From a virus, in the IMG/VR virus record IMGVR_UViG_3300045988_063822: 38,666 nucleotides of DNA; one strand, given 5' to 3'. Of the stretch, positions 1 to 25,784 are shown piece after piece (the stretch's first letter is position 1; every line of letters starts with the position of its first letter). A program made the position numbers and the translations under genes. Under the pieces are notes generated by a model, which saw only the letters and a program-made list of their open reading frames with translations, did no database searches and was not told where the DNA came from.

Positions 1-85
1 GGGTAAATTATGACGCCACAGAGGAAACCAAAATTGAGCTAATGTCTGGTATTTCTACCGTTGGATTGTATTATGGCAAAAAAAC
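1..85. repeat. Terminal overlap copy 1, identical to 38582-38666. This is a circular or complete-contig signature; the genome unit is 38581 bp.
   Basis: Read directly: both ends read gggtaaattatgacgccacagaggaaacc...ttatggcaaaaaaac. The repeat lies inside an ORF that stays in frame across the junction. Confidence 0.9.
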
Positions 86-701
86 AGAATCTTCGCAAAT
101 AGTAACTGCGGATGATATGTTGCGCATAACTGTTAATGCTTGGACTTGTGGCGTATATACATCCCTAAGAAAGATATTGATTGAATTTGCAACGAGTGGT
201 AGCACTAACGATTTTGTTAAAATAGAGTCAGCCACTATTGGTGACCAAGAAACATTTACTGTTGTAGGTACCTATAATGTTTCTGGGAATAGTGGATGGA
301 ACTCGATACCTTATTCGAATAATTTGGGGGCGTATTCACTAAACCAGACTTCTAATGTTGGAGTATTACGGTTTACTTTTTCAACCAGTACTGCTAGTAG
401 TTATCGAGGTAGACCGTATGTTCAAAATCTAATACTAAATGGGATTACTAATTATGTTAATCCAAGCAAGCTATCAGCTACGGGACATCTGTATTCATAC
501 GATTATCAACAAAATGCAATGTTCCCAGCTAATGTAACTGCTGAAAAATTTATTGGTGATGGGTCAAAATTAACCAATATTCCTTATCCACCAAAAGAGC
601 TTCCGAATGTCACCACCGCTGACAATGGAAAGTTCTTGCGTGTTGTGTCCGGCGCATGGGCCGCTGCGGAGATTGCAAACGCAAACGGAGGTAGCTTCTG
701 A
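1..701 (+). CDS. Tail fibre / receptor-binding protein, 3' part. The ORF starts at 38188 and continues across the circular junction; full length is about 364 aa.
   Basis: The frame of ORF 42..701 matches ATG 38188 once 38581 is subtracted. It is the last gene of the tail module. The C-terminal domain is AT-rich. Stop codon at 699-701. Confidence 0.7.
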   Translation, partial: VNYDATEETKIELMSGISTVGLYYGKKTESSQIVTADDMLRITVNAWTCGVYTSLRKILIEFATSGSTNDFVKIESATIGDQETFTVVGTYNVSGNSGWNSIPYSNNLGAYSLNQTSNVGVLRFTFSTSTASSYRGRPYVQNLILNGITNYVNPSKLSATGHLYSYDYQQNAMFPANVTAEKFIGDGSKLTNIPYPPKELPNVTTADNGKFLRVVSGAWAAAEIANANGGSF

Positions 702-2080
702 TGGCTGAATATCTAACAAACACAACCGACCTGACAAAGGTTGCCGCAGCTATCCGGGAGAAAGGCGGCACATCTGACCCACTGGTCTACCCGGACGGAT
801 TTGTGACGGCTATTGGGAACATTCAGACTGGAGGCACTACACCCGGCGCACCCGGAGACATTACATTCTACGACTATGATGGCACGATTGTCACGTCTTG
901 GACGTTGGAAGAACTGGCAACAAAGACAGCGCTGCCAGATTATCCATCGCATGAGGGGCTTATCTGTCAGGGCTGGAACTGGTCGCTTGCCGACCTCAAG
1001 ACCACAAATCGCAAGATGAATGTCGGCGCAATGTATATCACGGACGACGGCAAAACCAGAATCTACATCCGTCTGGAAGAAGGGCGCACATCCCCAATGC
1101 TTGGCGTTTGTCCGAATGGCACAGTCACGGTTGATTGGGGCGATGGAACCACGCCGGATACATTGACGGGTACAAGCACATCCACGGTAAAATGGACACC
1201 AAATCATGCTTATGCCGCAGCGGGCGAGTATGTGATCAAGTTGACAGTTGATGGGACGATGGGATTTTACGGTGGCTTTGTTTTCTCTGTGGGTGGCGCA
1301 ATTCTTCTGTATTCATCTAATGTTTCAGACAATCGTAATTATGTTTATAGAAACAGTGTTCAGAAAATTGAGATTGGAAGTGGTGTAACAAGTATTGGAG
1401 ACTATGCTTTCAGCCCTTGTTATTCTCTTGCATCAATCACAATTCCTGATAGTGTAACAAGTATTGGAAACCATACTTTCAATTACTGTTATTCTCTTGC
1501 ATCAATCACAATTCCTGATAGTGTAACAAGTATTGGAACCTATGCTTTCCGTTACAATTATTCTCTTGCATCAATCACAATTCCTAATGGTGTAACAAGT
1601 ATTGGAGAAGGTACATGCAATTACTGTTATTCTCTTGCATCAATCACAATTCCTGATAGTGTAACAAGTATTGGATTCGCCGCATTCGAGAGTTGTTATT
1701 CTCTTGCATCAATCACAATACCGAATAGCGTGACAAGTATTAGTGCGCAGACATTTTACAACTGTTATTCTCTTGCATCAATCACAATTCCTGATGGTGT
1801 AACAAGTATTGGAAACCATGCTTTCAATAGTTGTTATTCTCTTGCATCAATCACAATTCCTAATGGTGTAACAAGTATTGGAGACTATGTATTCAATTAC
1901 TGTTATAGTGTAGCTTTTTATGATTTCACAGATTACACATCTGTCCCGACACTAGCAAACACCAATGCGTTTACCAATATCTCAGTTGACTGTCAAATCC
2001 GCGTTCCAGCGTCGCTTGTCGATGAATGGAAAGCAGCTACAAACTGGTCGACATACGCGAGCCATATCGTGGGGGTGTAA
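701..2080 (+). CDS. Tail-associated leucine-rich-repeat protein: fibre-like N-terminus, a Listeria-Bacteroides-repeat-like segment, a PKD-like segment and 8 BspA-type LRR_5 repeats.
   Basis: ATGA overlap with the previous stop. Motifs seen: HEGLICQGWNW, DWGDGTTPD...HAYAAAGEYVIKLTV (PKD-like), and 8 copies of SIGxxxFxxCYSLASITIPxxVT. Confidence 0.8.
   Translation: MAEYLTNTTDLTKVAAAIREKGGTSDPLVYPDGFVTAIGNIQTGGTTPGAPGDITFYDYDGTIVTSWTLEELATKTALPDYPSHEGLICQGWNWSLADLKTTNRKMNVGAMYITDDGKTRIYIRLEEGRTSPMLGVCPNGTVTVDWGDGTTPDTLTGTSTSTVKWTPNHAYAAAGEYVIKLTVDGTMGFYGGFVFSVGGAILLYSSNVSDNRNYVYRNSVQKIEIGSGVTSIGDYAFSPCYSLASITIPDSVTSIGNHTFNYCYSLASITIPDSVTSIGTYAFRYNYSLASITIPNGVTSIGEGTCNYCYSLASITIPDSVTSIGFAAFESCYSLASITIPNSVTSISAQTFYNCYSLASITIPDGVTSIGNHAFNSCYSLASITIPNGVTSIGDYVFNYCYSVAFYDFTDYTSVPTLANTNAFTNISVDCQIRVPASLVDEWKAATNWSTYASHIVGV
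1382..1933. repeat. Tandem array of 8 x 69 bp (23-codon LRR units). The scaffold parts are near-identical and each unit has a variable core of about 20 nt.
   Basis: The strings tgttattctcttgcatcaatcacaattcct and gtgtaacaagtattgga recur with a 69-bp period. The segment between them differs in every unit. Confidence 0.9.
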
Positions 2081-2082
2081 TT

Positions 2083-2331
2083 ATGATTCAAAAAGAATTT
2101 TATGTACAGCGTAAGGACGGTGTAAAGCTATATCGTACCTATTCCGATGCGGGAATGATGATTCGGCAGAATGAGACTGGTGTGGAATATGCAGAGGCCA
2201 TTGATGTGGAAAACGCGGCATACACCTATACAGAGACGGAAACGCCAATCGAAACGCCGGAGATGACTACAGAAGAACGTTTGCAAGACGCTGAGACGGC
2301 ACTAGGAATCATGTTTGGGGAGGCGGAATGA
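2083..2331 (+). CDS. Hypothetical protein (82 aa).
   Basis: ATG 3 nt after the stop of the LRR gene. The next gene is coupled by an ATGA overlap. Confidence 0.55.
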   Translation: MIQKEFYVQRKDGVKLYRTYSDAGMMIRQNETGVEYAEAIDVENAAYTYTETETPIETPEMTTEERLQDAETALGIMFGEAE

Positions 2332-2783
2332 TGACATATACAGAAAGAGCTAGAGCACTACGGCCCTATATCGTCAAGGCTTCAGCCAGTCTGACGGATG
2401 CAGACGCGCTAAAGGCAATGGAGCTTTACCGACGCTGGGAACCCAATCTGGTCATCAAAGCGGGCGACCGACTTGTTTTCCCGGTCAATGGCACGGACAG
2501 GCTGTTCCGCGTCAACGAAGGACAGGCGCACACGACGCAGGAAGGTTGGGAGCCGGACAAGACACCGGCGATGTTTACCGTCATCGACGAGACCCACGCG
2601 GGCACACAGGACGACCCCATTCCAGCCGCAAAAGGCATGGAGTACACCTACGGACTTTACTACACAGACCCGGAGGACGGCAAGCTCTACCGCTGCGAAC
2701 GGACGGGCGAGCAGCCGGGCGGCAAGGTGACGCTTCAGTTCCTGCCTCATGAGCTGGTGGGGCTGTATTTTACCGAAGTATAA
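2328..2783 (+). CDS. Hypothetical protein with two CBM5/12-like (chitin-binding type 3-like) motifs.
   Basis: The pattern W..N..IKAGDRLVF..NG..FRVNEGQAHTTQEGWEPDKTPAMF resembles the W..G..Y..GD.V.Y.G..Y.C.Q.HTS..GWEP...PALW signature. A second, degenerate copy follows (GKLYRCERTG). Confidence 0.5.
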   Translation: MMTYTERARALRPYIVKASASLTDADALKAMELYRRWEPNLVIKAGDRLVFPVNGTDRLFRVNEGQAHTTQEGWEPDKTPAMFTVIDETHAGTQDDPIPAAKGMEYTYGLYYTDPEDGKLYRCERTGEQPGGKVTLQFLPHELVGLYFTEV

Positions 2784-2795
2784 AGGAGAAAAGAG

Positions 2796-3092
2796 ATGGA
2801 CGATGGAATTCAGGCAAAGATCGTGGAGATCGACCAGCGATCCAAGAGCAACACGCACCGCATCAACGACCTAGAGGAGGACAACCGGGCGCTGCATCAG
2901 CTGGCGACCTCGGTAGAGGTGCTAGCGACGAAGCAGGAGACGATTGAAGCCAATGTCAGCGAGATCAAGGACGACGTGAAGAGCCTCAAGGCCATTCCGG
3001 GCGGGAAATGGGAGGCACTGGTCAAGGCGGTCGTGACGGCCATTGTAGGGGCGCTGGTCGGATTTGCGCTGGCTCATGCGGGGATCGTATGA
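2796..3092 (+). CDS. xhlA: XhlA-like haemolysin / lysis-associated membrane protein.
   Basis: RBS aaaggag. Coiled-coil N-terminus plus a single C-terminal TM segment (AVVTAIVGALVGFALAHAGIV). It sits directly upstream of the holin and amidase, as in PBSX-type lysis cassettes. Confidence 0.6.
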   Translation: MDDGIQAKIVEIDQRSKSNTHRINDLEEDNRALHQLATSVEVLATKQETIEANVSEIKDDVKSLKAIPGGKWEALVKAVVTAIVGALVGFALAHAGIV

Positions 3093-3349
3093 TGGAGACT
3101 TCGAAGAAGCTGCTGATTGGCAGCGCGGCGGCAAGCGTCGTTTGCATTATCCTGAATGTGCTCGGCGTGCTGAGTGTGGAGGTCACGTTGGCAGTCATCG
3201 GATTTGCGACGGCGATTGGGATGTTTTACCTGTGGAAGGCCAAGAACGAGAACCGCAGCAAATACGCAATCAAGTACATCGAGAGCCTGCCGGAGACGTA
3301 TACGGCAGAGGAAAAGGCACGGTTTTTGGAGATCGTGCTGAAGGACTGA
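3089..3349 (+). CDS. Small membrane protein with two predicted TM segments; possible holin-like or lysis accessory protein.
   Basis: ATG overlaps the upstream stop. Hydrophobic stretches LLIGSAAASVVCIILNVLGVL and VTLAVIGFATAIGMFYLW. Confidence 0.5.
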   Translation: MMETSKKLLIGSAAASVVCIILNVLGVLSVEVTLAVIGFATAIGMFYLWKAKNENRSKYAIKYIESLPETYTAEEKARFLEIVLKD

Positions 3350-3361
3350 AAGGAGCAAACT

Positions 3362-3679
3362 ATGGACTACACAGAAATCATTTCGGCGGTGATTGCGCTG
3401 ATCTCGGCGCTGGTGTCGGCATTTTTGATCCCGTGGATCAAGGAGCGCGTCGGCGCGGACAAGCTCAAAAAGTGGCAGGCGTATGTGGAGATCGCGGTAA
3501 GGGCGGCGGAGCAGCTTTACAATGCCAACGAGGGCGCTGAGAAAAAGGCGTATGTGCTGCACTACCTCGCCGAGAGAGGCATCAAGTTTGATTCTGATAC
3601 CGTGGATAAAATGATCGAATCTGCGGTGCTGACGCTCCACCATGAGCTTTACGGAGGCGCAAATGGCACTGAAAATTAA
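3362..3679 (+). CDS. Phage holin, LL-H family-like.
   Basis: RBS aaaggag. N-terminal TM segment (IISAVIALISALVSAFLIPWI) followed by KLKKWQAYVEIAVRAAEQLY...KKAYVLHYLAERGI...IESAV, the typical LL-H holin layout. Confidence 0.65.
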   Translation: MDYTEIISAVIALISALVSAFLIPWIKERVGADKLKKWQAYVEIAVRAAEQLYNANEGAEKKAYVLHYLAERGIKFDSDTVDKMIESAVLTLHHELYGGANGTEN

Positions 3680-4343
3680 CGATACCATCCGGGCAACGAG
3701 AGTGGGCGGGCGGCGTCCGCTCTCGGCCATCCGTGCAATCGTGTTTCACTACACGGCGAACACCGGCCTGCACGCGACGGCGCTCGGGAACGCGCGGTAT
3801 TTCGCGAACGGCAGCGAGGGACGCGCTGCTTCGGCACATTTCGTGGTTGACGAAAGCGATACCGTTTATCAGTGTGTGCCGCTGGAGGTGGTTGCGTGGG
3901 CGGTTGGCGACGGCAGGAGCGGCAAATACGGCAAGGTGTACGGCAACTACAACACCGTCAGTATCGAGATGGTGAGCCACACAGATGCTTCCGGCAAGTA
4001 TTACATCCCGGAGGCGACGATGAAAAACGCGGCGCGTCTGTATCAAATGCTGTTGAAGCAGCTGCCGGGCGTGCAGGCCGCAATCCGACATTATGACATT
4101 TCGATGAAACTGTGTCCGCTGCCGCTGATTGACGAAAAGAAATGGGAGGACTTTAAGAAGCTCTTGGAGGAGGTGGACGAAGTGGTCACGAAAGCAAAGA
4201 TGATCATCAACGGCAAGGAGATCGAGGTCGAACGGATTTTGAAGGACGGCACGAATTACATCAAAATTCGGGACATCGCAAAGGCGCTCGAACTGGATGT
4301 GTCGAATAAGGGGAACATTCCCATTTTGAATCATAAGCAGTAG
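3663..4343 (+). CDS. Endolysin: N-acetylmuramoyl-L-alanine amidase (Amidase_2/PGRP type) with a C-terminal copper-amine-oxidase-N-like wall-binding domain.
   Basis: GGAGG lies 6 nt upstream of ATG 3663; there is an alternative ATG at 3642. Motifs IVFHYTAN, AHFVVDE, AWAVGD, SIEMV. C-terminal INGKEIEVERILKDGTNYIKIRDIAKALEL. Confidence 0.85.
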   Translation: MALKINDTIRATRVGGRRPLSAIRAIVFHYTANTGLHATALGNARYFANGSEGRAASAHFVVDESDTVYQCVPLEVVAWAVGDGRSGKYGKVYGNYNTVSIEMVSHTDASGKYYIPEATMKNAARLYQMLLKQLPGVQAAIRHYDISMKLCPLPLIDEKKWEDFKKLLEEVDEVVTKAKMIINGKEIEVERILKDGTNYIKIRDIAKALELDVSNKGNIPILNHKQ

Positions 4344-4368: not shown

Positions 4369-4638
4369 TTGGAGGTGGTGACGATCAGCGCGAGGGTGCG
4401 GATTCCGGAAGACTTGACCGGCCTGCTGCAAGGCGAGTGGGAGCAGATAATATCTCAGGCAGGCTACAGTGAGCAGGACGCGGAGATCGTCCGGCGCTAT
4501 GTCATGGACAAGACACCGCAAATTGACGTCGCGGTGGAGCTTGACATGGCGCGGAGCACGATCACCCGCAGACTGCCGCAGATCTACGCACGAGCGCGGC
4601 ACACGGCAGCAAAGCTGCAAATGATAAAAACTAAATGA
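4369..4638 (+). CDS. Small sigma-70 region-4-like HTH DNA-binding protein. The start codon is uncertain (TTG 4369 or GTG 4375/4378).
   Basis: YSEQDAEIVRRYVMDKTPQIDVAVELDMARSTITRRLPQIYARAR resembles region 4 of ECF-type sigma factors. Confidence 0.45.
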   Translation: MEVVTISARVRIPEDLTGLLQGEWEQIISQAGYSEQDAEIVRRYVMDKTPQIDVAVELDMARSTITRRLPQIYARARHTAAKLQMIKTK

Positions 4639-4668
4639 TGCACACTAGATATTGAGCAAAACGATACG

Positions 4669-4704
4669 CCCCGGCAGGAGAAATCCTGTCGGGGGTGATT
4701 TTTA
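4669..4704. terminator. Bidirectional hairpin terminator between the convergent late operon and the toxN-like gene.
   Basis: Stem ccccggcagg (4669-4678) pairs with cctgtcgggg (4685-4694) with one G-U pair, followed by a T-run at 4699-4704. Confidence 0.6.
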
Positions 4705-5205
4705 TTGCTTTTGGCTTTTGCCTCGGGAAGGGTCATACGCTGCGCATGCTTGCTCCAATGCTTTGAAATCGCAGGATATTTTACAAAGAAAGGCGTTACC
4801 CTTATTCACAACGGAAAAGTATGTATGGGCAGCGCGATCCATAATATCTGCCTTATGTTTGTTGCATTGTGCAATCTGATTCAAAAGAAGTGCGCGGTAC
4901 TTGGGATCTGATTCTTCCGCGATATTATAGCGGACAATGGCCGCATCGTGGACAGGAATCATATTGTTAAATCCAAGAAGTCCAAGTTTACCACCACTAA
5001 GTTTCAGATAATGCTTCCCGGGTTTCATTTTTTCGTGATTCGGTTTCGGAGACTCCATCGGAACGAAATAACGGAATTCGCCCACCAGCAGAACTACACC
5101 AACGTACGGTCGACGCTGCCCTTTGTTGAATGGGACACGGTAATCGCGAGAGTGCATGAACCGGATATAGTGGTCTGAGATTCTGCAAATGAAAAGATTC
5201 TCCAT
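4702..5205 (-). CDS. toxN: ToxN/AbiQ-family endoribonuclease toxin (type III toxin-antitoxin / abortive infection).
   Basis: The 167-aa product reads FICRISDHYIRFM..RDYRVP....RRPYVGVVLLVGEFRYFVPMESPKPNH...LGLLGFNNMIPV. This aligns by eye with ToxN (FYTISSKYIEYLKEFDDKVP...AFIGIVLEIQGHKYLAPLTSPKKWH...LGLINLKFMIPI). It is preceded by a repeat array and a terminator. Confidence 0.8.
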   Translation of the reverse strand: MENLFICRISDHYIRFMHSRDYRVPFNKGQRRPYVGVVLLVGEFRYFVPMESPKPNHEKMKPGKHYLKLSGGKLGLLGFNNMIPVHDAAIVRYNIAEESDPKYRALLLNQIAQCNKHKADIMDRAAHTYFSVVNKGNAFLCKISCDFKALEQACAAYDPSRGKSQKQ

Positions 5206-5220
5206 ATTTCGACCTTTCCG

Positions 5221-5258
5221 GGAGAAAAAGGCGAGGCGGAGGACAATCTCCGCCTCGC
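5221..5258 (-). terminator. Rho-independent-type hairpin between the repeat array and the toxin gene.
   Basis: gcgaggcggag (5231-5241) and ctccgcctcgc (5248-5258) form an 11-bp stem. On the minus strand the stem is followed by CTTTTTC (5230-5224). Confidence 0.7.
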
Positions 5259-5274
5259 TTTTAGGTGCCCGTGT

Positions 5275-5396
5275 TTTTCAGTTTCCTACTTAACGGCAAG
5301 GAATTTCCGCTTTTTTCATTTCCTACTTAACGGCAAGGAGTTTCCGCTTTTTTGATTCCCTATTTTACGGCAAGGGGTTTCCGCTTTCACGAGCGG
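5275..5396 (-). ncRNA. ToxI-like antitoxin RNA precursor: 3 tandem 37-nt repeats plus partial flanking units.
   Basis: Minus strand reads GCGGAAACCCCTTGCCGTAAAATAGGGAATCAAAAAA / GCGGAAACTCCTTGCCGTTAAGTAGGAAATGAAAAAA / GCGGAAATTCCTTGCCGTTAAGTAGGAAACTGAAAAA. In plus coordinates the units span 5348-5384, 5311-5347 and about 5274-5310. Confidence 0.75.
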
Positions 5397-5454
5397 TGAT
5401 GAACAGGACGATGAATGATGTTCAATCACTATATCTTGCGGATTTCTCCGCATC

Positions 5455-5486
5455 CATAGTATTACATCTTTTCGGTCAAATGTCAA
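5455..5486 (-). promoter_or_regulatory. Candidate sigma-70-type promoter for the repeat-toxin transcript.
   Basis: Minus strand reads TTGACA (5486-5481), a 17-nt spacer containing a TG, then AATACT. It lies about 50 nt upstream of the first repeat. Confidence 0.4.
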
Positions 5487-5574
5487 TAAACCAGAACAAA
5501 TATTTTCAAAAATCGAACACCTGTTCGCGCTCGCGGACACCTAAATACACCGCATAGATTTACGCGAAAAATGG

Positions 5575-5614
5575 ATGCGTCAGAAATGCTACATAAATGC
5601 GTCACTCATGCTAC
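5575..5614. promoter_or_regulatory. Two tandem 22-bp imperfect direct repeats in the divergent intergenic region; candidate regulator binding sites.
   Basis: ATGCGTCAgaaATGCTAC at 5575-5592 and ATGCGTCActcATGCTAC at 5597-5614. Confidence 0.4.
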
Positions 5615-5699
5615 CCTCGCGCGTCCCTTAGAAATTTGAAATCCCTCATACTGAACGTAGGAACTGGCCGGTTCACTACATTTTTTGGAGGGAAACTCT

Positions 5700-6263
5700 A
5701 TGGAATACGCAAGCAACGGCAAGGCCAATGCGGCCCTGACCACTGGCATCATCGGCACGGCGGGCGTCGGCCTCGGCCTGCTGGGCAATCTGCTCGGCGG
5801 AGGCTGGGGTGTAAATCCGGCTGCGGTGGCTGCGGGGTGCAGCGAGAACACGCCGGTCACACGCTATGAGCTTGATCGTGAGCAGCAGCTCGCGCAGAAG
5901 GACAGCGAGATCGCGCTGCTCAAGGCCAACACCTACAACGATCAGAAGTCGCTGGAGATGTACGCTTACATCGACGGCCAGCTCAAGGACATCCGTAAGT
6001 CGATCTGCGATCAGGCGGTACACAACCAGCGCACCGAGGACAGCTTCGTCCTTGCCCGTCAGGACATTGCATCGGTCAAGTCCGAGCTGCACCGCGAGAT
6101 CGAGATGGAGGCCGAACGGCGCTGCTGCGGCGACAACTCGATTGTCACCTACGCCAATGCGACCTTTTATCCCAAGCAGGTCGCCGACGTCACGACCGGA
6201 ACCGCAACGACGGCACAGACGCTTTACAATCCGCTCCCGAAGTGCGGCTGCTGCAACAAGTAA
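5700..6263 (+). CDS. Hypothetical accessory protein: Gly-rich hydrophobic N-terminus, coiled coil, Cys-rich C-terminus (CGCCNK).
   Basis: RBS ggaggg lies 7 nt upstream of ATG 5700. No family recognised. Confidence 0.6.
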   Translation: MEYASNGKANAALTTGIIGTAGVGLGLLGNLLGGGWGVNPAAVAAGCSENTPVTRYELDREQQLAQKDSEIALLKANTYNDQKSLEMYAYIDGQLKDIRKSICDQAVHNQRTEDSFVLARQDIASVKSELHREIEMEAERRCCGDNSIVTYANATFYPKQVADVTTGTATTAQTLYNPLPKCGCCNK

Positions 6264-6269
6264 ACGCAA

Positions 6270-6289
6270 GGGGCGGCAATAGCCGCCCC
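6270..6289 (+). other. GC-rich stem-loop after the 5700-6263 gene; the T-tract is weak.
   Basis: ggggcggc / gccgcccc stem with a 4-nt loop (aata). Confidence 0.35.
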
Positions 6290-6311
6290 GCCTTAAAATG
6301 GAGGTAACCTT

Positions 6312-6650
6312 ATGGTGACAATAGATCAGGCCATGCGCGGCGTGGCGCAGTATGCCGACAATGAGATCATACCACATCTTCCGACCGGCAAGGGCATTGG
6401 CGCCGGGATTGCGCTGGCGCTCATCATAGACGGCGGCAAGAGCCGCATCCTCGCGCTCAAGGATCACCCGGCAGTGCAGATGATGGGCATTATGGATGAG
6501 GATGGCAACATTGATCTCGACCGGCTTTACAACGCCGCGAGGGTGCGCGTGGACGGAAAGAAGATCCCACTGACCATTCCGGCCATTGGGGAGCTGCGGT
6601 TCGATGTGAACGATGTCGACCGGCTTTACAAATACATTCAGGAGGCGTGA
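6312..6650 (+). CDS. Hypothetical protein (112 aa).
   Basis: RBS ggagg upstream of ATG 6312. No family recognised. Confidence 0.55.
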   Translation: MVTIDQAMRGVAQYADNEIIPHLPTGKGIGAGIALALIIDGGKSRILALKDHPAVQMMGIMDEDGNIDLDRLYNAARVRVDGKKIPLTIPAIGELRFDVNDVDRLYKYIQEA

Positions 6651-6651
6651 T

Positions 6652-7131
6652 ATGGGAAAAGAGCATTATATCGAAGAACTGAAACGGCAGATGCATGAGA
6701 TCATGGAGCGCCAGGTGACGCTTGGCCGCGCGGAAGAAATCACGGTGTATGCGGATGCCATTTGTGCGCTGCACAAACTGGACGATGACCATTTTCGTGA
6801 GTCCACGAAAATGATGGAATTCACCCGCGAGGATGCCGAAAAGTGGGTATCGCACATGGAGAACGAGGACGGCACGACCGGCGCACACTGGACAATGGAG
6901 CAGACGGACGCTGTGGCCAATATCACAGGTGTTCATGCGAAGTCCTGCGTCTGGTGGGCGGCAATGAACATGATGTACTCGGACTATTACGGTGTGGCTG
7001 CCAAGTACGGCCTTGACCGGCCGGAGTTCTACGCCGACCTCGCCAAAGCGTTCCTCATGGATAAGGACGCCGGCGGAGCGGAGGAAAAAATGGATGGGTA
7101 TTATCATGGGGTTGTGCTGAGAGAAAAATGA
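6652..7131 (+). CDS. Hypothetical protein (159 aa).
   Basis: RBS ggagg lies 6 nt upstream of ATG 6652, 1 nt after the upstream stop. No family recognised. Confidence 0.55.
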   Translation: MGKEHYIEELKRQMHEIMERQVTLGRAEEITVYADAICALHKLDDDHFRESTKMMEFTREDAEKWVSHMENEDGTTGAHWTMEQTDAVANITGVHAKSCVWWAAMNMMYSDYYGVAAKYGLDRPEFYADLAKAFLMDKDAGGAEEKMDGYYHGVVLREK

Positions 7132-7377: not shown

Positions 7378-8553
7378 CTAATCGTGCTCTGAGGCATCAA
7401 CACTTGCCCCGTGTGTAACATTATGTGCAACATCATTTTTCCCTGTATTTGGTGCTCCGGGCATTTGATTCACGGCAGCGGCCATGCTGGACATATCCGG
7501 GTGGATATAGCGCTGCGTCGTGGTATACTTGCTGTGCCGCATGATCTCCTGAATCACGGACGGTGCGATATTTTGCAGTGCCAGCGCCGTGGCCGTCGTG
7601 TGGCGGCAGGAATACGGGACAAGCCGCCGCACCCCCGCTTGCTCAAGGGCCTCATAATAGCGCGTGTAAAATGTCTGCTCCATCATAGGACAAAAATTCC
7701 CGACGCGAGATTTATTCTCCTCGCAGAGCTGCCGGATGACCGGCGCGAGAAAGTCCGGAAATACCATGGGTGTCTCTTTGCGCTTTTTTGTTTTGATGCC
7801 GCTTTTGACGATCTCGTTGCGTTCAAAGTCGATGCAGGCTTTTTTGAGCCCGCGCAGCTCCCCGGGCATCATGCCTGTGTAGATCATGGTGAGGATATAG
7901 CCGACAAAGTGATTTGTGAGATACGCCTTCCATAGTTTTTTGATCTCGTCGTCTGTAAACGGCTCCGGCGGGGTCTCGATCAGCTCCGGGAGCGTGATGT
8001 ATTTTGAGAGGTTTACCGTCACAGCTTTCTCAGCCAGAGCCAGATTAAAGCAATGCGAGAGCAGCGTCTTCATGTCCTTCCGCGTATAGTATGTGCTGGC
8101 CTCGCGGTCAACGACTTCCTGGATCTGATGGATGACCAGGTTGTCCATCTCAATATCTGCCAAGGAGGACAGGCGCTCATAGGCTTTTCGCATGGCGGCC
8201 TGTTTGTCGCGGGACAGTTTTTTGTATTTGCCTGCCTTGTAAGTCACCCAGTATTCCCGCAGCGTGGGTGCGGCCGGCGTTGGCTTCGGTGGGTCTGACG
8301 CATAAGCGAGGGCGGCCCGTTTGGTCTTGAAGCCGCCCTTCGTCTTTACGGTCCGCCGCAGTTTCCCGTCCTCATCCAGATAGGAGCCTGTGCTCCACTT
8401 GGCTGTCCATGTGGCGCCGCGCTTGTAGGCGGTGCCCTGTCCATTGCCGCGAGACCGTATCCCGCCGCGCATGGCCGCGGTCTCCTGCTTCGCGCCACAC
8501 TGGGCGCAGAATGGGCCGTCCGGAACGTCTTGTTTGCATTTGCGGCAGATCAT
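7378..8553 (-). CDS. int: Tyrosine-type site-specific integrase with an N-terminal zinc-ribbon.
   Basis: C-terminal catalytic signature ...YSCRHTTATALAL...IMRHSKYTTTQRYIHP. N-terminal CRKCKQDVPDGPFCAQCG. Adjacent to the tRNA-derived attP. Confidence 0.9.
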   Translation of the reverse strand: MICRKCKQDVPDGPFCAQCGAKQETAAMRGGIRSRGNGQGTAYKRGATWTAKWSTGSYLDEDGKLRRTVKTKGGFKTKRAALAYASDPPKPTPAAPTLREYWVTYKAGKYKKLSRDKQAAMRKAYERLSSLADIEMDNLVIHQIQEVVDREASTYYTRKDMKTLLSHCFNLALAEKAVTVNLSKYITLPELIETPPEPFTDDEIKKLWKAYLTNHFVGYILTMIYTGMMPGELRGLKKACIDFERNEIVKSGIKTKKRKETPMVFPDFLAPVIRQLCEENKSRVGNFCPMMEQTFYTRYYEALEQAGVRRLVPYSCRHTTATALALQNIAPSVIQEIMRHSKYTTTQRYIHPDMSSMAAAVNQMPGAPNTGKNDVAHNVTHGASVDASEHD

Positions 8554-12025: not shown

Positions 12026-12829
12026 ATGTTTGTTTTGCAAGGGGGTGAATCGATTTTGAGCGAAGATTTTCGCGCCTTCTGGTCGGTCATCCCGGCCACG
12101 GTGCTGGATGATATGTCCATCCCGGCCAATGCGAAGATCCTCTATGGGGTGCTGTCGTCGCTGATGCGGCGCGAGGGTTATTGCTGGCCGAGCAATGCGC
12201 AGCTTGCCGAGGCGATGCACTGCTCCGAGGACGTGGTCAAACGATGGGTGTCGGCGCTGGCCGAGGCCGGACATATCCGTGTCCGCATCGAGCCGAACCG
12301 AAAGGTCGGCGGCAAGATCCGCTATATCTCGCCAGTGCTGGCAGAGCCGTCCATTTCTCCCTCGCGGGATGGGTACGGGGACGAATGTCCCGGTACGTAC
12401 GGGGATAAACTTCCCCGGGTAGGGGGACAAAATTCCCCGTCTATATATAAGGATGGATATAAAAAAGAGAATAAAAAGAAAAAGGAAAAAGAAAAGCCGC
12501 AATCGGCTGACGCCGTTGCGTCCGCGCTCCTGTATAAATGCGAGCTGAACGGTCAGCCGCTGGTGGATGCCATGCAGCGGTTTTTGCAAATGCGCGTTGA
12601 GATCAAAAAGCCCGTCAAGTCCATGCAGGCTGCTTCCATGCTTTGGAACAAGCTCGTCAAGCTGTCTACCGGTGACCCGGACTACATGGTCGCCCTGCTG
12701 GATAAGGCGACTGAGCGGCAATGGCTGAGTCTGTTCCCGCTGAAGAATGACGAGCTGCCGCAGAACCGGCAGGCTGTCCCGGCTGATAATGCCGGGCGCG
12801 TGGATCTCAGCGGCGTGGAGTTCGTGTGA
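12026..12829 (+). CDS. Replication initiator / replisome organiser: winged-helix N-terminus, Lys-rich linker, C-terminal domain. An alternative TTG start exists at 12056.
   Basis: IPANAKILYGVLSSLMRREGYCWPSNAQLAEAMHCSEDVVKRWVSALAEAGHI. It sits immediately upstream of DnaB with overlapping stop and start codons. Confidence 0.6.
   Translation: MFVLQGGESILSEDFRAFWSVIPATVLDDMSIPANAKILYGVLSSLMRREGYCWPSNAQLAEAMHCSEDVVKRWVSALAEAGHIRVRIEPNRKVGGKIRYISPVLAEPSISPSRDGYGDECPGTYGDKLPRVGGQNSPSIYKDGYKKENKKKKEKEKPQSADAVASALLYKCELNGQPLVDAMQRFLQMRVEIKKPVKSMQAASMLWNKLVKLSTGDPDYMVALLDKATERQWLSLFPLKNDELPQNRQAVPADNAGRVDLSGVEFV
12373..12500. promoter_or_regulatory. Candidate origin of replication inside the initiator gene: GGGGA-type iterons followed by an AT-rich tract.
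   Basis: gtacgggga occurs at 12373-12381 and 12397-12405. ttccccg occurs at 12411-17 and 12433-39. gggggac at 12422-28. These are followed by ctatatataaggatggatataaaaaagagaataaaaagaaaaaggaaaaagaaaag. Confidence 0.45.
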
Positions 12830-14196
12830 TGGCCAGCAAACAAGATGCGCTGATCAGCGCACAGACCTCCGTCCTCGGCTCGATGATCATCGATTCGCGC
12901 TGCGTCCCCGTCGTGATGGAGACGATCAAGGAGGACTATTTCACGGTCGGCCAGTATCGGACGATTTTCAACGCGATCCGTGCGCTGGCTGGTGAGGGAC
13001 GTCCGATCGATGCCGTGACGGTGCTCGACCGGGCTGGAAAAGCCTACGCCGACCTGATCGGCCAGATCATCACGGTCACGCCGACCGCCGCCAATGTCCG
13101 CGAGTATTGCCGTATCCTGCGGAGCGAGGCCCGCTTGCAGCTGCTCAAGGACGCAGCCGGCGCAATGCTCGACGCGGAGGACGAAGACGAGATCCGCAGG
13201 GCACTGGATCAGGTCAACCGCATCATGGTCGACAAGCCTGGCATCCGAGCCATGAATATGGCGCAGGCCCTGGAAGATTTCTACCGGCGGCACGATCCAT
13301 CCGTCAAGCCGGACTTTCTCCCGTGGAAGTTTGCCAAGCTCAACAAATACCTCCGGACGGAGCCCGGAGACCTCATCTACATCGGCGGCTATCCCTCGGA
13401 CGGCAAGACCACGCTTGCACTGCACACGGCCCGAGAGCAGGCAAAAACCAAAAAGGTCGGGTTCTTCAGCTATGAAACAAACTGTGGGAAGCTGGCAGAC
13501 GCGATGGTCTGCGCTGCCGCGCAGATCGGCCTGCCAACCATCCAACTCAACAAACTCGGCGAAAACGAGTGGGACGAACTGGCCTACATTTCCACAGATT
13601 TCACGGGGCGCAACCTCGACATCATTGAGGCCGCGGGCATGACGGTCACGGACATCCGTCTCTATACCATGGCGCACCACTACGACGTGATCTACATCGA
13701 CTATGTCCAGCTCATCCCGGCCAGCGGGAAAAGCCGCTGGGAACAGGAGGATTTCCAGCGGGTCAGCGCGAACAGCCGCGCGCTCAAGCTCTTCGGCCTC
13801 CAGTGCGGTGTGACGATCGTGGCCCTCAGCCAGATGACGAGGCCGCAGCGCAACAAGGACGGCATGATCCCGCCGCCGACAATGTCCAGCCTCCGCAGCA
13901 CTGGCCAGATTGAGCAGGACGCGGACGCCGTTCTCCTGATGTTCCGCGAGGATCAAAAGGCAAAGGATGCCGACCGCATCATCACCTTCGGCAAGATCAA
14001 GACCGGCGCAGCCGGCGGTTCATTCAAGCTCCATTTCGACGGCGAAATGCAGACGTTCAGCGATAAGCCGAACGAGCGCAAGCAGCGCCGCGAGGAAGTG
14101 CAGCAACAGACGAAAATGCAGGAATTCCGGGAACTTCCAAAAAGCGAACCGCTCCCGGATGATTTCCCGTTTGAACGAAAGGAAGAAAACACATGA
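12829..14196 (+). CDS. dnaB: Replicative DNA helicase, DnaB family.
   Basis: N-terminal DnaB domain (SVLGSMIIDSRCV...), Walker A GGYPSDGKTTLAL, Walker B VIYIDYVQLI, then LSQMTR and SLRSTGQIEQDADAV. Confidence 0.9.
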   Translation: MASKQDALISAQTSVLGSMIIDSRCVPVVMETIKEDYFTVGQYRTIFNAIRALAGEGRPIDAVTVLDRAGKAYADLIGQIITVTPTAANVREYCRILRSEARLQLLKDAAGAMLDAEDEDEIRRALDQVNRIMVDKPGIRAMNMAQALEDFYRRHDPSVKPDFLPWKFAKLNKYLRTEPGDLIYIGGYPSDGKTTLALHTAREQAKTKKVGFFSYETNCGKLADAMVCAAAQIGLPTIQLNKLGENEWDELAYISTDFTGRNLDIIEAAGMTVTDIRLYTMAHHYDVIYIDYVQLIPASGKSRWEQEDFQRVSANSRALKLFGLQCGVTIVALSQMTRPQRNKDGMIPPPTMSSLRSTGQIEQDADAVLLMFREDQKAKDADRIITFGKIKTGAAGGSFKLHFDGEMQTFSDKPNERKQRREEVQQQTKMQEFRELPKSEPLPDDFPFERKEENT

Positions 14197-15008
14197 AAGC
14201 AATCGCAATCCTGAATCTGAAAGGCGGCGTCGGAAAGACCGTCACTGCCGTCAACATGGCCCACATCCTGGCCGCCGATCACAAACAGCGTGTGCTCCTG
14301 GTTGACTGCGACAGCCAGTGCAACGCGACGGAGTTCTTCGGTGTGCGGCCCGGCATGGGAACGGTCACACTGGCCGACATTCTGCGCGGCGACTTCGAGC
14401 CGTACGTCTCGGAGCTGGTCACTGGCACGGATTATCCCGGCGTCGACGTGATCCCCGGCTCCGATGAGCTGATGGACATGGATATGTCCCAAATCACGAG
14501 TCAGCGTGTCAACGGCCGCGTCCTTGCGGATCTGTGCTACACAATCGGTGAGGATGACGAGTACGACTACGTCCTGTTCGACTGCCCGCCGGCCTTTAAT
14601 GCAGCGAGCGCCGCAGCGCTCCTGGCTGCGGATGAGGTCATCATCCCGATCAAGCTCGACGCCTTTTCCATCCGAGGGTTGGCCAATGTCAGCCGCCAGA
14701 TTGACAACATGCAGCGCATCAATCCCAAGATCCGCGTTGCCGGGGCGCTCATCACGATGTGGCGCAACGTGCCCGTCGTGCTGGAGGCCGAGGGCAGTCT
14801 CCGCGACTGCGGCCTGCTGCCGGTATTTCAGACGGTCATTCGCCGCACTGACAAGGTCGACGAGATGACCTTCGAGCGCAAACCCATCGCCATCTATTCC
14901 CCGCGCAGCGCCGCCGGCTATGATTACCGCAGTTTTGTGCAGGAGTATTTGGAGCCGCCCGTCACAATGGACGATATGCTGAGAGGAGGCGTTGACCGTG
15001 CCGTTTGA
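14193..15008 (+). CDS. parA: ParA/Soj-family ATPase.
   Basis: Deviant Walker A: MKAIAILNLKGGVGKTVTAVNMA. Also LLVDCDSQCNAT and VLFDCPPA. Confidence 0.85.
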   Translation: MKAIAILNLKGGVGKTVTAVNMAHILAADHKQRVLLVDCDSQCNATEFFGVRPGMGTVTLADILRGDFEPYVSELVTGTDYPGVDVIPGSDELMDMDMSQITSQRVNGRVLADLCYTIGEDDEYDYVLFDCPPAFNAASAAALLAADEVIIPIKLDAFSIRGLANVSRQIDNMQRINPKIRVAGALITMWRNVPVVLEAEGSLRDCGLLPVFQTVIRRTDKVDEMTFERKPIAIYSPRSAAGYDYRSFVQEYLEPPVTMDDMLRGGVDRAV

Positions 15009-23456: not shown

Positions 23457-25784
23457 ATGACCGAGGCGCGCGGGTGCGCGCGAGAATTGAATCATGCGGT
23501 GCGGGCGCAAACGACGCGCCTGCGCGAAACGCCGGAGGCTGTGCCAGGCAGCAGCGACATTGGGAACGCCGCCATTGCCTTCTCAGATCCTCCTAACTGG
23601 GCCCGGAGCCGCCGGGCCTGGCAGAGTCTCCGGCATGCGGGAGGTGAGCACTTGGCCAGAGAGGACATGATCCGGAAGGACATGGAGCTGGTCGGAACCT
23701 ACAACGAGATATTCGAGCCGACGATCAAGCAGCTGGCCAAGACGGAACGCGAACTCTCCCGCGCAGAGAAAGAGTGGAAGAAACAGGGGGGGCAGCGGAT
23801 CTGCACCATGATCAACAAGACCGGCGCGGAGTACACGGCCAAAAGCCCATACTGGACGGCGGTCGAAGATCTGCGCGCGACGGTGCAGTCACTCCGCAAT
23901 CAGCTCGGCCTGACGCCGACTGGCCTGAATAAAGCCAGATCGAAGCTTCAGCCCTCTGCCCTCGGCAACAGCAAGATCGAGCAAATGCTTGCCGCAGCGC
24001 ACGACCACGCTGTTGAGCACGGCCCGCAGTATCAGCGCGAGGTGGACTCCTTCGTGGAATCCGTCCTGTCCGGAGAGTCCGGGTTGTGCGAGGATGCTGT
24101 GCTCGCCTGCAAGCGATACGTTGCAGACCTCGACCGTGGAAAATGGGAGTTCCGCACGGAACCGGCCAACGACATCATCGCCATCATCGAGACAATGCTC
24201 TGCCACCAGCAGGGAGAATTTTTGGACGCAACGCCGCTGCGCGGCACGCCGTTCCTGCTTCTCCCTTATCACAAGTTCATCGTCTACAACCTTCTCGGCT
24301 TTTATGCCCCAGGGACGAACATCCGGCGCTTCAAGGAGGCCGTCGACTTCATCCCCCGAAAAAACATCAAGACGACCTTTGCTGCAGCGCTCGCGTTTGC
24401 GCTGGCGCTGCATGAACGAGCCAGCGGTTCCAAGGTTTATGCCGTAGGCGGTGCGCTTAGGCAAACGAAAGAGGTTTTCAATTTTCTTAAATACAACCTG
24501 GCTCGTTTGCAAATTACGACGGATGACGATCCTGTGCAGGGGCTTCGCGTCATCGACAACAATGCCGAGCGGTCGATCTCCGGCGATATCGGCAGCGGCA
24601 TGGTCTCCATCGATGCGCTGGCCGCGAATCCTGACAAGCAGGACTCCTTTAACTGCAACATCGTCATCGCGGACGAAGCGCACACCTACAAAAGCCCGCA
24701 ACAGTATCAGATCCTGAAGGACGCGACGAAGGCGTACACAAACAAGCTCGTCATCGTGATCTCGTCTAACGGTCCGAACGCCAGAGGCTTCCTGCTCGCC
24801 CATCTCGAATACTGCCGGAAAATTCTGCGCGGGACGGTCACGGGTGACGCGGCCGACAGCATCTTTTGTTTTCTCTGCTCCGCGCCGACACTGGAAAACG
24901 GTGACGTTGACCTGCATGATCCGGCTGTGCTGAAAGCAGCCTCGCCGGGCTGGGGCTACTCCATCCGCCCGCAGGACATGATCAACGATGCAGCCATGGC
25001 CGCTGAAAACCCGGCGCTCCGGCCGGAGTTTCTCAACAAGTCGCTGAACGTCACAACGAACGCGATCAAGGCATGGTTTGACATTCAAGAGTTCCGCAAG
25101 AGCGACGAACGATACAGTTGGAACTATCGGCAACTCGCGAAGCTGCCTATCCGTTGGTATGGCGGCACAGACCTTTCGAAGCTGCACGACCTGACGGCCG
25201 GTTGCCTCTTCGGCCACTACAAAGGCGTAGACATCATCATTCCGCATGCATGGTTCCCGCGGCCGGCCGCCATCGTCAAGGCGCAGCAGGATCAAATCCC
25301 GCTATTCGGCTGGCAGGAGGACGGCTGGCTGGACATGACCAACGACAAGGTCACAAATCACCACGATGTGGTGCAATGGTACAAAAACCTGCGCGCCGAT
25401 GGGTTTAAGATCCGCCGCATCGGACACGACCGAAAATTCTGCCGCGAATACTTCGTCGAGATGCAGAAGGAACGCTTCCCCATCAAGGATCAGCCGCAGC
25501 TGTTCACACGGAAATCCGAAGGTTTCCGCTACCTGGAGGCCAGCGCCAAGAAAGGAACGCTCTACTACATGCACGCCGAGCCCTATGAGTATTGCGTGCA
25601 GAATGTCGCCGGAATTGAGAAGGCTGACGACATGGTCATGTATCAAAAAATCGAGCCAAACCTCCGCATCGACCTTTTTGATGCCTCGGTGTTCGCGGTT
25701 TGCGCTTATCTCGAAGATCTGACCGCCAGCAATAAGGCGGCAGGCTGGTATGACAAGAAAGACAAGGACGGTGATGCAGATTGA
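23457..25784 (+). CDS. Terminase. A P27-family small-subunit-like region (about aa 1-176) is fused in frame to a Terminase_1-type large subunit (aa 177-775). The internal ATG at 23985 could also initiate TerL alone.
   Basis: TerS-like stretch: ...KSPYWTAVEDLRATVQSLRNQLGLTPTGLNKARSK. TerL-like stretch: ACKRYVADLDRGKWEFR...GTPFLLLPYHKFIVYNLLGFY...NIVIADEAHTYK. No stop codon separates them. Confidence 0.8.
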   Translation: MTEARGCARELNHAVRAQTTRLRETPEAVPGSSDIGNAAIAFSDPPNWARSRRAWQSLRHAGGEHLAREDMIRKDMELVGTYNEIFEPTIKQLAKTERELSRAEKEWKKQGGQRICTMINKTGAEYTAKSPYWTAVEDLRATVQSLRNQLGLTPTGLNKARSKLQPSALGNSKIEQMLAAAHDHAVEHGPQYQREVDSFVESVLSGESGLCEDAVLACKRYVADLDRGKWEFRTEPANDIIAIIETMLCHQQGEFLDATPLRGTPFLLLPYHKFIVYNLLGFYAPGTNIRRFKEAVDFIPRKNIKTTFAAALAFALALHERASGSKVYAVGGALRQTKEVFNFLKYNLARLQITTDDDPVQGLRVIDNNAERSISGDIGSGMVSIDALAANPDKQDSFNCNIVIADEAHTYKSPQQYQILKDATKAYTNKLVIVISSNGPNARGFLLAHLEYCRKILRGTVTGDAADSIFCFLCSAPTLENGDVDLHDPAVLKAASPGWGYSIRPQDMINDAAMAAENPALRPEFLNKSLNVTTNAIKAWFDIQEFRKSDERYSWNYRQLAKLPIRWYGGTDLSKLHDLTAGCLFGHYKGVDIIIPHAWFPRPAAIVKAQQDQIPLFGWQEDGWLDMTNDKVTNHHDVVQWYKNLRADGFKIRRIGHDRKFCREYFVEMQKERFPIKDQPQLFTRKSEGFRYLEASAKKGTLYYMHAEPYEYCVQNVAGIEKADDMVMYQKIEPNLRIDLFDASVFAVCAYLEDLTASNKAAGWYDKKDKDGDAD

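Follow-up and report, generated by a model that had tools for sequence, protein, structure and literature searches.

Type III toxin-antitoxin systems of the toxIN family are recognised by four elements, namely a promoter, repeats, a terminator and a toxin open reading frame (ORF) (PMC8860590). Blower et al. (2012) listed 67 toxIN loci, one of them phage-borne (Clostridium phage D-1873), and gave for the family repeats of 31-62 nucleotides (nt; mean 38.1) in 1.9-5.6 copies (mean 2.8) and toxins averaging 168 amino acids (aa) (PMC3401426). The cleavage specificities reported within the family are AA/AU, A/AAAA and A/AAA (PMC5086642). The locus analysed here lies on the minus strand (read 5486 -> 4702) of the viral record IMGVR_UViG_3300045988_063822, whose 38.7-kb sequence (38,666 nt) is referred to as the window and provides all the coordinates. 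It is very probably a type III toxin-antitoxin operon of the toxIN family that forms part of the accessory cargo of a temperate phage infecting gut Clostridia. With repeats of 37 nt, 3.1 copies and a toxin of 167 aa, it sits at the family means, and all four elements are present at the sequence level, the promoter by consensus match. The analysis covered the operon anatomy, the family, fold and key residues of the toxin, the homology of the RNA and the covariation of its pseudoknot, the phage context and the prevalence of such loci.

Among the described systems, AbiQ/antiQ of Lactococcus lactis (pSRQ900-type plasmids; structure 4GLK) has the same operon order as the window locus, and its toxin aligns with the modelled window toxin at a template modelling score (TM) of 0.82. 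Its antitoxin RNA, antiQ, is the closest known relative of the window unit, both having about three copies, the AAUCAAAAAA junction and an AAGU loop. The cleavage reported for AbiQ, A/AAA, falls in the A-run (PMC5086642). On the other hand, the two toxins are only about 31% identical, AbiQ having Leu where the window toxin and its close relatives (hereafter the clade) have Glu51. The first of the two helices discussed below (helix a) is GGUG/CACC in antiQ (positions 5-8 with 15-18) and GCGG/CCGU in the window (3-6 with 17-20), where A7 and G16 are mostly unpaired; relative to antiQ, it is shifted by two base pairs (bp) around the same GG:CC core. Also, antiQ begins about 11 nt after the -10 element, whereas the window clade has a two-hairpin leader of about 60 nt, and AbiQ is plasmid-borne while the window locus is prophage-borne.

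ToxIN-Bt (Bacillus thuringiensis plasmid pAW63; 4ATO; Rfam RF02519) is the best match of the toxin in both sequence and structure. It possesses three non-identical units, the first with an A/U-rich helix a (AGAG/CUUU), as in several arrays of the window clade, and its preferred cleavage site is A/AAAA (PMC5086642). It differs from the window locus by its 34-nt unit (vs. 37 nt), by the lack of a long leader, by its location on a conjugative plasmid and by its active site, which is Thr-Ser vs. Glu-Ser in the window clade.

Clostridium phage D-1873 is, as the window, a phage of Clostridia. Its toxin is 40% identical to that of the window and its toxIN locus has 3.2 units of 38-39 nt with a window-like layout of helices a and b, A-run junctions and, downstream, a terminator hairpin. 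D-1873 also has a leader of about 60 nt, but with one long hairpin instead of the two of the window, and the sequence of helix a (CAGUG/CACUG) is unlike that of the window. D-1873 is a large plasmid-prophage with a botulinum neurotoxin cluster (PMC3401426), unlike the window phage, which has a size of 38.7 kb and encodes an integrase.

As for ToxIN-Pa, the founding member (Pectobacterium atrosepticum pECA1039; 2XDB, 2XDD and 2XD0), it has the same architecture, presumably the same mechanism, and a toxin with a TM of 0.77, which is only about 34% identical to the window toxin in a multiple alignment. Both the UUAAGU loop and the GG...CC core of helix a are common to ToxI-Pa and the window units. 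ToxIN-Pa differs by its unit of 36 nt, repeated identically many times (11 in the pPA21A relative), its AA/AU cleavage site and its proteobacterial plasmid host. Two other type III families were considered and rejected: cptIN, with repeats of 40-48 nt, and tenpIN, with repeats of 39-57 nt (PMC3401426), vs. 37 nt in the window. For cptIN, the TM to CptN is 0.53 vs. 0.82 to ToxN and the only Pfam match is ToxN_toxin; for tenpIN, no match beyond ToxN_toxin/AbiQ was found.

The features of the window locus are as follows:
5458..5486, minus strand: sigma-70-type promoter-like site by consensus match, with TTGACA (5486-5481), a 17-nt spacer with TG extension, and AATACT (5463-5458)
5396..5452, minus strand: structured 5' leader with two hairpins; nine unpaired nt (5395-5387) precede unit 1
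5452-5437, minus strand: leader hairpin 1, TGCGGA-GAAA-TCCGCA
5429-5396, minus strand: leader hairpin 2, GTGATTGAACA...TGTTCATCAC
5350..5386, minus strand: ToxI-like unit 1 (R1), 37 nt, AAGCGGAAACCCCTTGCCGTAAAATAGGGAATCAAAA; helix b CCCT/AGGG
5313..5349, minus strand: ToxI-like unit 2 (R2), 37 nt, AAGCGGAAACTCCTTGCCGTTAAGTAGGAAATGAAAA
5347-5344 with 5333-5330, minus strand: unit 2 helix a, GCGG with CCGT, by covariation
5339-5336 with 5324-5321, minus strand: unit 2 helix b, TCCT with AGGA, by covariation
5275..5312, minus strand: ToxI-like unit 3 (R3), 38 nt, AAGCGGAAATTCCTTGCCGTTAAGTAGGAAACTGAAAA
5224..5260, minus strand: predicted intrinsic terminator between the array and toxN, an 11-bp GC-rich stem starting AAGCGAGG, then CTTTTTC
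5219-5213, minus strand: weak Shine-Dalgarno sequence of toxN, GGAAAGG
4702..5205, minus strand: toxN, ATG start, predicted 167-aa ToxN/AbiQ-family endoribonuclease toxin, from Pfam, PADLOC and PDB matches, AlphaFold2 and Foldseek
4669..4694, no strand assigned: bidirectional terminator-like hairpin between the convergent toxN (minus) and orf89 (4369-4638, plus)

The toxN product matched Pfam PF13958 (ToxN_toxin), its only Pfam match, with 153 bits (cut-off 25; E = 9.6e-45) over profile positions 3-159 of 159, and the PADLOC AbiQ model at 8.7e-41. Matching PDB sequences were ToxN-Bt (4ATO, 4e-17 with phmmer) and AbiQ (4GLK, 8e-12), as well as ToxN-Ec (7D8O) and ToxN-Pa (2XD0). An NCBIfam search gave no match for the toxN product, yet NCBI has named homologues of it: of the more than 850 found at 60-70% identity, some are called 'type III toxin-antitoxin system ToxN/AbiQ family toxin'. 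In PHROGs, the product matches phrog_9764, listed with 'unknown function', at 3e-34. An AlphaFold2 model built on 32 clade members reached a mean predicted local distance difference test (pLDDT) of 90.9 and a predicted TM (pTM) of 0.86, and Foldseek aligned it with 4ato_A (TM 0.82), 4glk (0.82), 2xd0_A (0.77) and 7d8o_A (0.74), vs. just 0.53 (E = 0.018) for CptN (4rmo_A). The catalytic and RNA-holding residues of ToxN-Ec are K33, T52, S53, K55, Y110 and Q117 (PMC8860590). The equivalents of K33, S53, K55, Y110 and Q117 in the window toxin are R32, S52, K54, Y103 and Q110; the 32 clade members show no or hardly any variation at these positions, which are also conserved with respect to the four reference toxins. 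Judging from these matches and the modelled fold, the 167-aa ORF is a ToxN/AbiQ-family toxin. A preliminary description of the window, which had placed a complete toxIN/abiQ-type type III operon on a temperate phage and proposed the ToxN_toxin profile as a check, was thus borne out by a full-length profile match; the parts that it had named (promoter, three repeats ending in A5-6, hairpin with CTTTTTC, 167-aa ORF) were all recovered where it had placed them on the minus strand. The ribosome-binding site that it had listed is present, but weak.

Upstream of toxN, Tandem Repeats Finder returned a single array (5274-5387; period 37, 3.1 copies, 90% matches, score 177), the end of which lies 70 nt from the toxN ATG. 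The 28-nt unit core was found nowhere in the window but in the three units and was matched by none of 100 dinucleotide shuffles. Each unit is closed by an A-run (A6 from 5353, A6 from 5316 and A5 from 5278). Partial units had also been proposed on both sides of the array, but these are marginal: the 5' one consists of GTGAA only, and the 3' one is the terminator stem, which starts AAGCGAGG as the units do and is parted from R3 by a 14-nt spacer (5274-5261).

The same description had considered the 37-nt repeat to be a new RNA unlike ToxI or antiQ, and this did not hold. The units were compared with those of the reference loci, i.e. pAW63 ToxIN-Bt, the Pectobacterium ToxIN plasmid, the lactococcal AbiQ plasmid, Clostridium phage D-1873 and C. 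difficile phage pCD1602_4. Window unit 2 (AAGCGGAAACTCCTTGCCGTTAAGTAGGAAATGAAAA) and antiQ (AAGCGGTGAATCTCCACCATCAAGTGAGAATCAAAA) are identical at 27 of 39 aligned positions (z 5.2; 0/500 shuffles as good), and the repeat matches ToxI-Bt at 23/37 positions (z 4.2) and ToxI-Pa at 22/38 (z 3.0), with a TTAAGT loop in common with the latter. Repeat and antiQ both start with AAGCGG and have an AAGT loop and an A-run junction, the unit junction AAUCAAAAAAGCGG being identical to that of antiQ. Given this significant similarity to antiQ, ToxI-Bt and ToxI-Pa, the repeat is, as far as its sequence tells, a divergent ToxI/antiQ homologue and no new RNA. Rfam ToxI (RF02519, gathering score 50 bits) found no match in 4400-5800, even at E 10, and the Rfam scan otherwise gave sub-threshold noise, e.g. 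sraL at 21 bits (cut-off 39) from the terminator hairpin. As a control, RF02519 was run on the reference units: it found only those of pAW63 and missed ToxI-Pa, antiQ and the D-1873 units. The model is narrow, and the missing Rfam match is therefore uninformative on homology.

Since the repeats are true ToxI/antiQ homologues, they could in principle serve mainly as a counter-defence decoy, neutralising a host-encoded ToxN during infection, as the pseudo-ToxI of Pectobacterium phage PhiTE; such phage RNA mimicry of ToxI has been documented (PMC3475682). A decoy would not need a toxin, yet here the repeats are followed, in the standard operon arrangement, by a full-length toxin gene with its catalytic residues conserved, and the toxin is intact in the more than 850 homologues and in 86 non-redundant operons, which makes this explanation highly improbable.

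These operons come from a set of related loci (L001-L159), collected from 79 viral contigs (IMG/VR) and 80 species-representative genomes; from these, the sequence preceding the toxin gene was extracted. On the viral contigs, a search with the single protein gave nothing, and an alignment-based search recovered the relatives. Tandem Repeats Finder detected a 36- or 37-nt tandem array in 111 of the 152 usable upstream regions. After de-duplication, 86 distinct operons remained, with 2 or 3 units (three in 68 of them), a terminator and a median array-ATG distance of 52 nt; that the related loci retain all these parts speaks for selection on the cassette as a whole. A promoter-like site with at least 9/12 consensus matches, its -10 element about 60-70 nt upstream of unit 1, was present in 60 of these 86 relatives, and a hairpin with a T-rich tail occupied the same position between array and toxin in 78. 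In the window, the promoter-like site scores 10/12 with the TG present; because three such sites were found vs. 1.7 expected, the promoter match alone is weak evidence. The terminator stem has 11 pairs, nine of them GC (5258-5231), plus the tail.

Concerning the structure of the RNA, the units support, at the level of sequence covariation, an H-type pseudoknot with the topology of the known antitoxins, as the preliminary description had expected. Helix a joins positions 3-6 (GCGG) with 17-20 (CCGU) and helix b positions 11-14/15 (YCCN) with 24/25-28 (NGGR), leaving the 5' AA and the 3' A-rich tail single-stranded. In 157 near-non-redundant units, positions 4 and 19 form C-G in 136 and A-U in 21 with no exception, while 5-18 and 6-17 are invariant G-C pairs. 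In the alignment of all units with MAFFT, the length gap fell inside helix a and split columns 19 and 20; because of this misplaced gap, positions 4 and 19 were tabulated directly and the 36-nt class was tested gap-free (75 units of 36 nt, MAFFT). On the latter alignment, practically all sequences can form the helix b pairs 11-28, 12-27, 13-26 and 14-25, each of which occurs in two to four pair types. Of all cells, 83% are paired, vs. 25-48% after the 3' partners have been displaced by 1-3 columns, and the covariation score is 0.44 vs. 0.17 in shuffles, none of 500 shuffles reaching 0.44. RNAalifold independently finds helix b. A compensatory change is also seen inside the window array, with CCCT/AGGG in unit 1 and TCCT/AGGA in units 2 and 3.

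This pattern bears on a further reading, in which the repeats are coding. An open frame does exist over them (5316-5540, minus strand, 74 aa, GTG start), but it has no Pfam match, the 37-nt period shifts the frame at every unit, and the substitutions are compensatory pairs of the RNA type. Moreover, gene callers call nothing in the 495-nt repeat region of five other contigs with the identical toxin, and the small ORF of the opposite strand (5396-5557, plus) is likewise not conserved. Almost no credence can be given to the coding reading, and the ORF is very probably spurious, as had been presumed.

The units within an array are not homogenised. Among 59 non-redundant loci with 3-unit arrays, they show about 80% identity, and conservation across loci is highest for unit 3 (0.81 identity), the helix b of which is CCCT/AGGG in 37/59. 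Unit 1 is where the A-U variant of helix a (AAGAGG...CCTT) mostly occurs (12/59 vs. 3/59 in each of units 2 and 3), and an analogous variant, AGAG...CTTT, occurs in the first pAW63 unit (locus L164). A position-specific orthology of the three units was looked for and is weak overall (0.759 vs. 0.735), only unit 3 standing out.

The terminator stems of related loci regularly open with AAG[C/A/G]G, exactly one repeat period past the last unit, and from its sequence the terminator looks as if it had been recruited from a truncated extra unit. Such a start keeps the A-run junction 3' of the last full unit; in the window, the 14-nt spacer displaces the stem.

By analogy with ToxIN-Pa, ToxIN-Bt, ToxIN-Ec and AbiQ, from which transcription, read-through, cleavage position, stoichiometry, toxicity and trigger are inferred, the toxIN operon would work as follows. 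One promoter would yield a transcript with the two-hairpin leader and then the three 37-nt ToxI/antiQ-like units. Most transcripts would end at the terminator and a fraction would continue into toxN, so that the RNA would be in excess over the toxin; the partial read-through of the predicted terminator, described as 'leaky', is what ToxIN-Pa biology would suggest. ToxN, as a sequence-specific endoribonuclease, would cut the precursor inside the A5-6 runs between the units. Each 37-nt monomer would then fold into a compact H-type pseudoknot (helix a GCGG/CCGU, helix b YCCU/AGGR) with single-stranded tails, and these tails would fill the RNA-binding grooves of ToxN molecules to give a closed, inactive protein-RNA assembly, harmless in the lysogen. 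Should transcription of the locus stop, the short-lived RNA would no longer be replenished, and free ToxN would cleave A-rich RNAs and halt growth. Possible triggers are a superinfecting phage that shuts off host transcription or the loss of the prophage; the former is the trigger described for E. coli ToxIN, according to a work cited in PMC12283969.

Several observations weigh against a functional toxIN operon of this kind. The first is Glu51 (codon 51, 5053-5055, minus strand), which stands just before the catalytic Ser52, is invariant in the clade and replaces Thr52 of ToxN-Ec, a residue that helps to position the scissile phosphate. The equivalent residue is Thr in ToxN-Pa, ToxN-Ec and ToxN-Bt but Leu in AbiQ; since AbiQ carries Leu, the position is not universally conserved, and from the sequence a change in catalytic chemistry or RNA specificity is possible. 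The second is the weak ribosome-binding site of toxN. Concerning the RNA, many units share a common descent, so that the covariation cell counts exceed the number of independent events, and the nested fold of a single unit does not outperform shuffles (z 0.06), a result that is uninformative since the algorithm cannot model pseudoknots. Finally, A5 runs are not depleted on the sense strand of the phage (plus strand 10801-38666 and 1-4343), with 63 observed vs. 43 ± 9 expected under a first-order model, TTTTT being at expectation; therefore, the phage would not be immune to its own freed toxin.

Glu51, in place of the Thr of ToxN-Pa, ToxN-Ec and ToxN-Bt, and the weak ribosome-binding site could also point to a decayed or silent remnant, e.g. 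with a toxin made catalytically dead by the Thr-to-Glu change. Nevertheless, Glu51 does not vary among the aligned clade members, which points to selection rather than decay; the ORF has its full length, 21 contigs carry the identical protein, and the compensatory substitutions in both RNA helices speak for an ongoing purifying selection on the RNA fold. A remnant is therefore very unlikely.

The window is that of a complete temperate phage, with an apparently fused terminase, portal, capsid and tail proteins, a holin, an endolysin and an integrase. It also encodes a DnaB helicase and a RepC-like helix-turn-helix (HTH) protein (12026-14196 region, plus strand), as well as a ParA/MinD-like ATPase (14193-15008, plus; AAA_31, 8e-41). 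The toxIN locus converges with the genes of the holin (3362-3679) and the amidase endolysin (3642-4343) and with an 89-aa ORF (4369-4638), i.e. with late genes on the opposite strand, and its GC content is 0.45-0.48 vs. about 0.58 in the phage backbone, so that both the orientation and the AT-richness noted in the preliminary description were confirmed. That description had further put the locus in a slot between the lysis genes and attP: it does lie beside the lysis genes, but attP was not located in the window, and three plus-strand genes (5685-7131) separate the locus from the tyrosine integrase (7378-8553, minus).

The identical toxin was found in the same slot on 21 public contigs, ten of them of 20-50 kb. 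The gene order was integrase, DUF7841, orf112, orf187, [repeats]-toxN, orf87, amidase, holin in 5/5 contigs examined. Many of the 79 related viral contigs likewise carry the cassette between lysis genes and integrase; among the 79, an orf89 homologue is convergent with toxN in 47 and an orf192 homologue is divergent from the array in 39. The 89-aa ORF downstream of the endolysin (4369-4638, plus) has no Pfam or PHROG match, its homologue being in the same place in 47/79 contigs.

The ParA-like ATPase, the RepC-like HTH protein and the DnaB helicase, together with the tyrosine integrase, suggest that the phage may maintain itself in integrated form or as a plasmid-like episome. The same toxin-antitoxin machinery may then have as its main role the stabilisation of the prophage or episome by addiction (post-segregational killing) instead of abortive-infection defence. 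A killer module would pay off in a plasmid-like state, with which the ATPase (14193-15008), the helicase and the HTH protein are compatible, and the transcripts of the phage itself show no avoidance of A-runs; furthermore, ToxIN-Bt promotes plasmid retention (PMC4615649), and both roles are commonly attributed to type III systems (PMC12283969). The tyrosine integrase (7378-8553), however, lets integration be expected as the lysogenic state, the slot beside the lysis genes is the usual site of defence cargo expressed in lysogens, and the best-studied relatives, ToxIN-Pa and AbiQ, are abortive-infection systems. Addiction as the main role thus appears unlikely, though it is a serious contender; the two roles are not mutually exclusive, and addiction stays alive as a co-role beside abortive infection. 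Both roles put forward in the preliminary description, the protection of lysogens and addiction, are plausible from what the family is known to do.

Two other genes of the window deserve mention. A 459-aa protein encoded at 701-2080 (plus), in the tail-end region upstream of the lysis genes, carries BspA-type leucine-rich repeats (LRR_5, 3.5e-65) and is, from this match, a candidate host-recognition or accessory surface protein. A 775-aa ORF (23457-25784, plus) combines a Terminase_4 small-subunit domain with the ATPase and nuclease domains of the large subunit; either the terminase is fused or the ORF has been called too long.

The two-hairpin leader, specific to the clade, and the invariant Glu beside the catalytic Ser are newly noted here; both are minor points. 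Between the -10 element and unit 1, the clade leader spans about 60 nt, and its minimum-energy fold consists of exactly two hairpins in 75 of 78 non-redundant relatives. The median z against dinucleotide shuffles is -3.75 in these 78 relatives, with z < -2 in 69, and the stems differ in sequence among relatives yet keep their pairing. The leader of the window itself forms both hairpins, although alone it is not significant (z -0.75 to -2.0). By comparison, the classical plasmid systems (pAW63 and the AbiQ plasmid) are without leader, their repeats beginning 8-15 nt after the -10 element. Hairpin 1 lies at the predicted start of the transcript and could therefore serve to stabilise the 5' end or be a palindromic DNA operator.

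In some relatives, including loci L084, L087, L147, L052, L076, L111, L126 and L116, the sequence directly 5' of unit 1 is CACCTCCTTT, identical to the 3' end of 16S ribosomal RNA (anti-Shine-Dalgarno); the window has CACCGCTCG at this place. An exact CCTCC was found in the leader of 15/78 relatives vs. 3% background. A pairing of this motif with the toxN ribosome-binding site was considered and rejected, CCTCC being not associated with GGAGG at toxN and the window having no CCTCC. Nor is the motif the Shine-Dalgarno sequence of a conserved antisense ORF in the 78 relatives: the antisense small ORF (5396-5557, plus) has a start with Shine-Dalgarno in 26/78 only, with lengths of 3 to 85 aa and unrelated peptides.

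The leader, with its anti-Shine-Dalgarno-like CACCUCCUUU in some relatives, and the invariant Glu might together form a regulatory layer not described for toxIN, an idea that we regard as rather improbable. If true, the leader might, for example, determine how stable ToxI is or how it is processed, or serve as an operator, coupling toxin release to the prophage state, and such a layer would explain how an abortive-infection toxin is carried without aborting the phage's own induction.

The toxIN family and its mechanism, its carriage by phages, reported since 2012 (D-1873; PMC3401426), and the toxin names at NCBI were already known, and the practical value of the present locus is mostly one of annotation. 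Besides the D-1873 case, a 2025 survey mentioned no phage type III system reported before its own tenpIN hits (PMC12283969); since that survey still cited a single phage-borne case, the prevalence of phage toxIN is under-appreciated. In a large clade of temperate phages from gut Clostridia (Oscillospiraceae, Faecousia, Acutalibacteraceae and others), a complete toxIN occupies a fixed slot beside the lysis genes. Two database gaps were also noted, phrog_9764 being an unlabelled ToxN/AbiQ family and RF02519 recognising only units of the B. thuringiensis type while missing ToxI-Pa, antiQ and the clostridial units. With the present data, phrog_9764 ('unknown function') can be named ToxN, and about 150 natural antitoxin RNA variants map the pseudoknot by covariation. 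For phage biology, the locus could be a starting point for asking how, during induction, a prophage copes with the abortive-infection toxin that it encodes.

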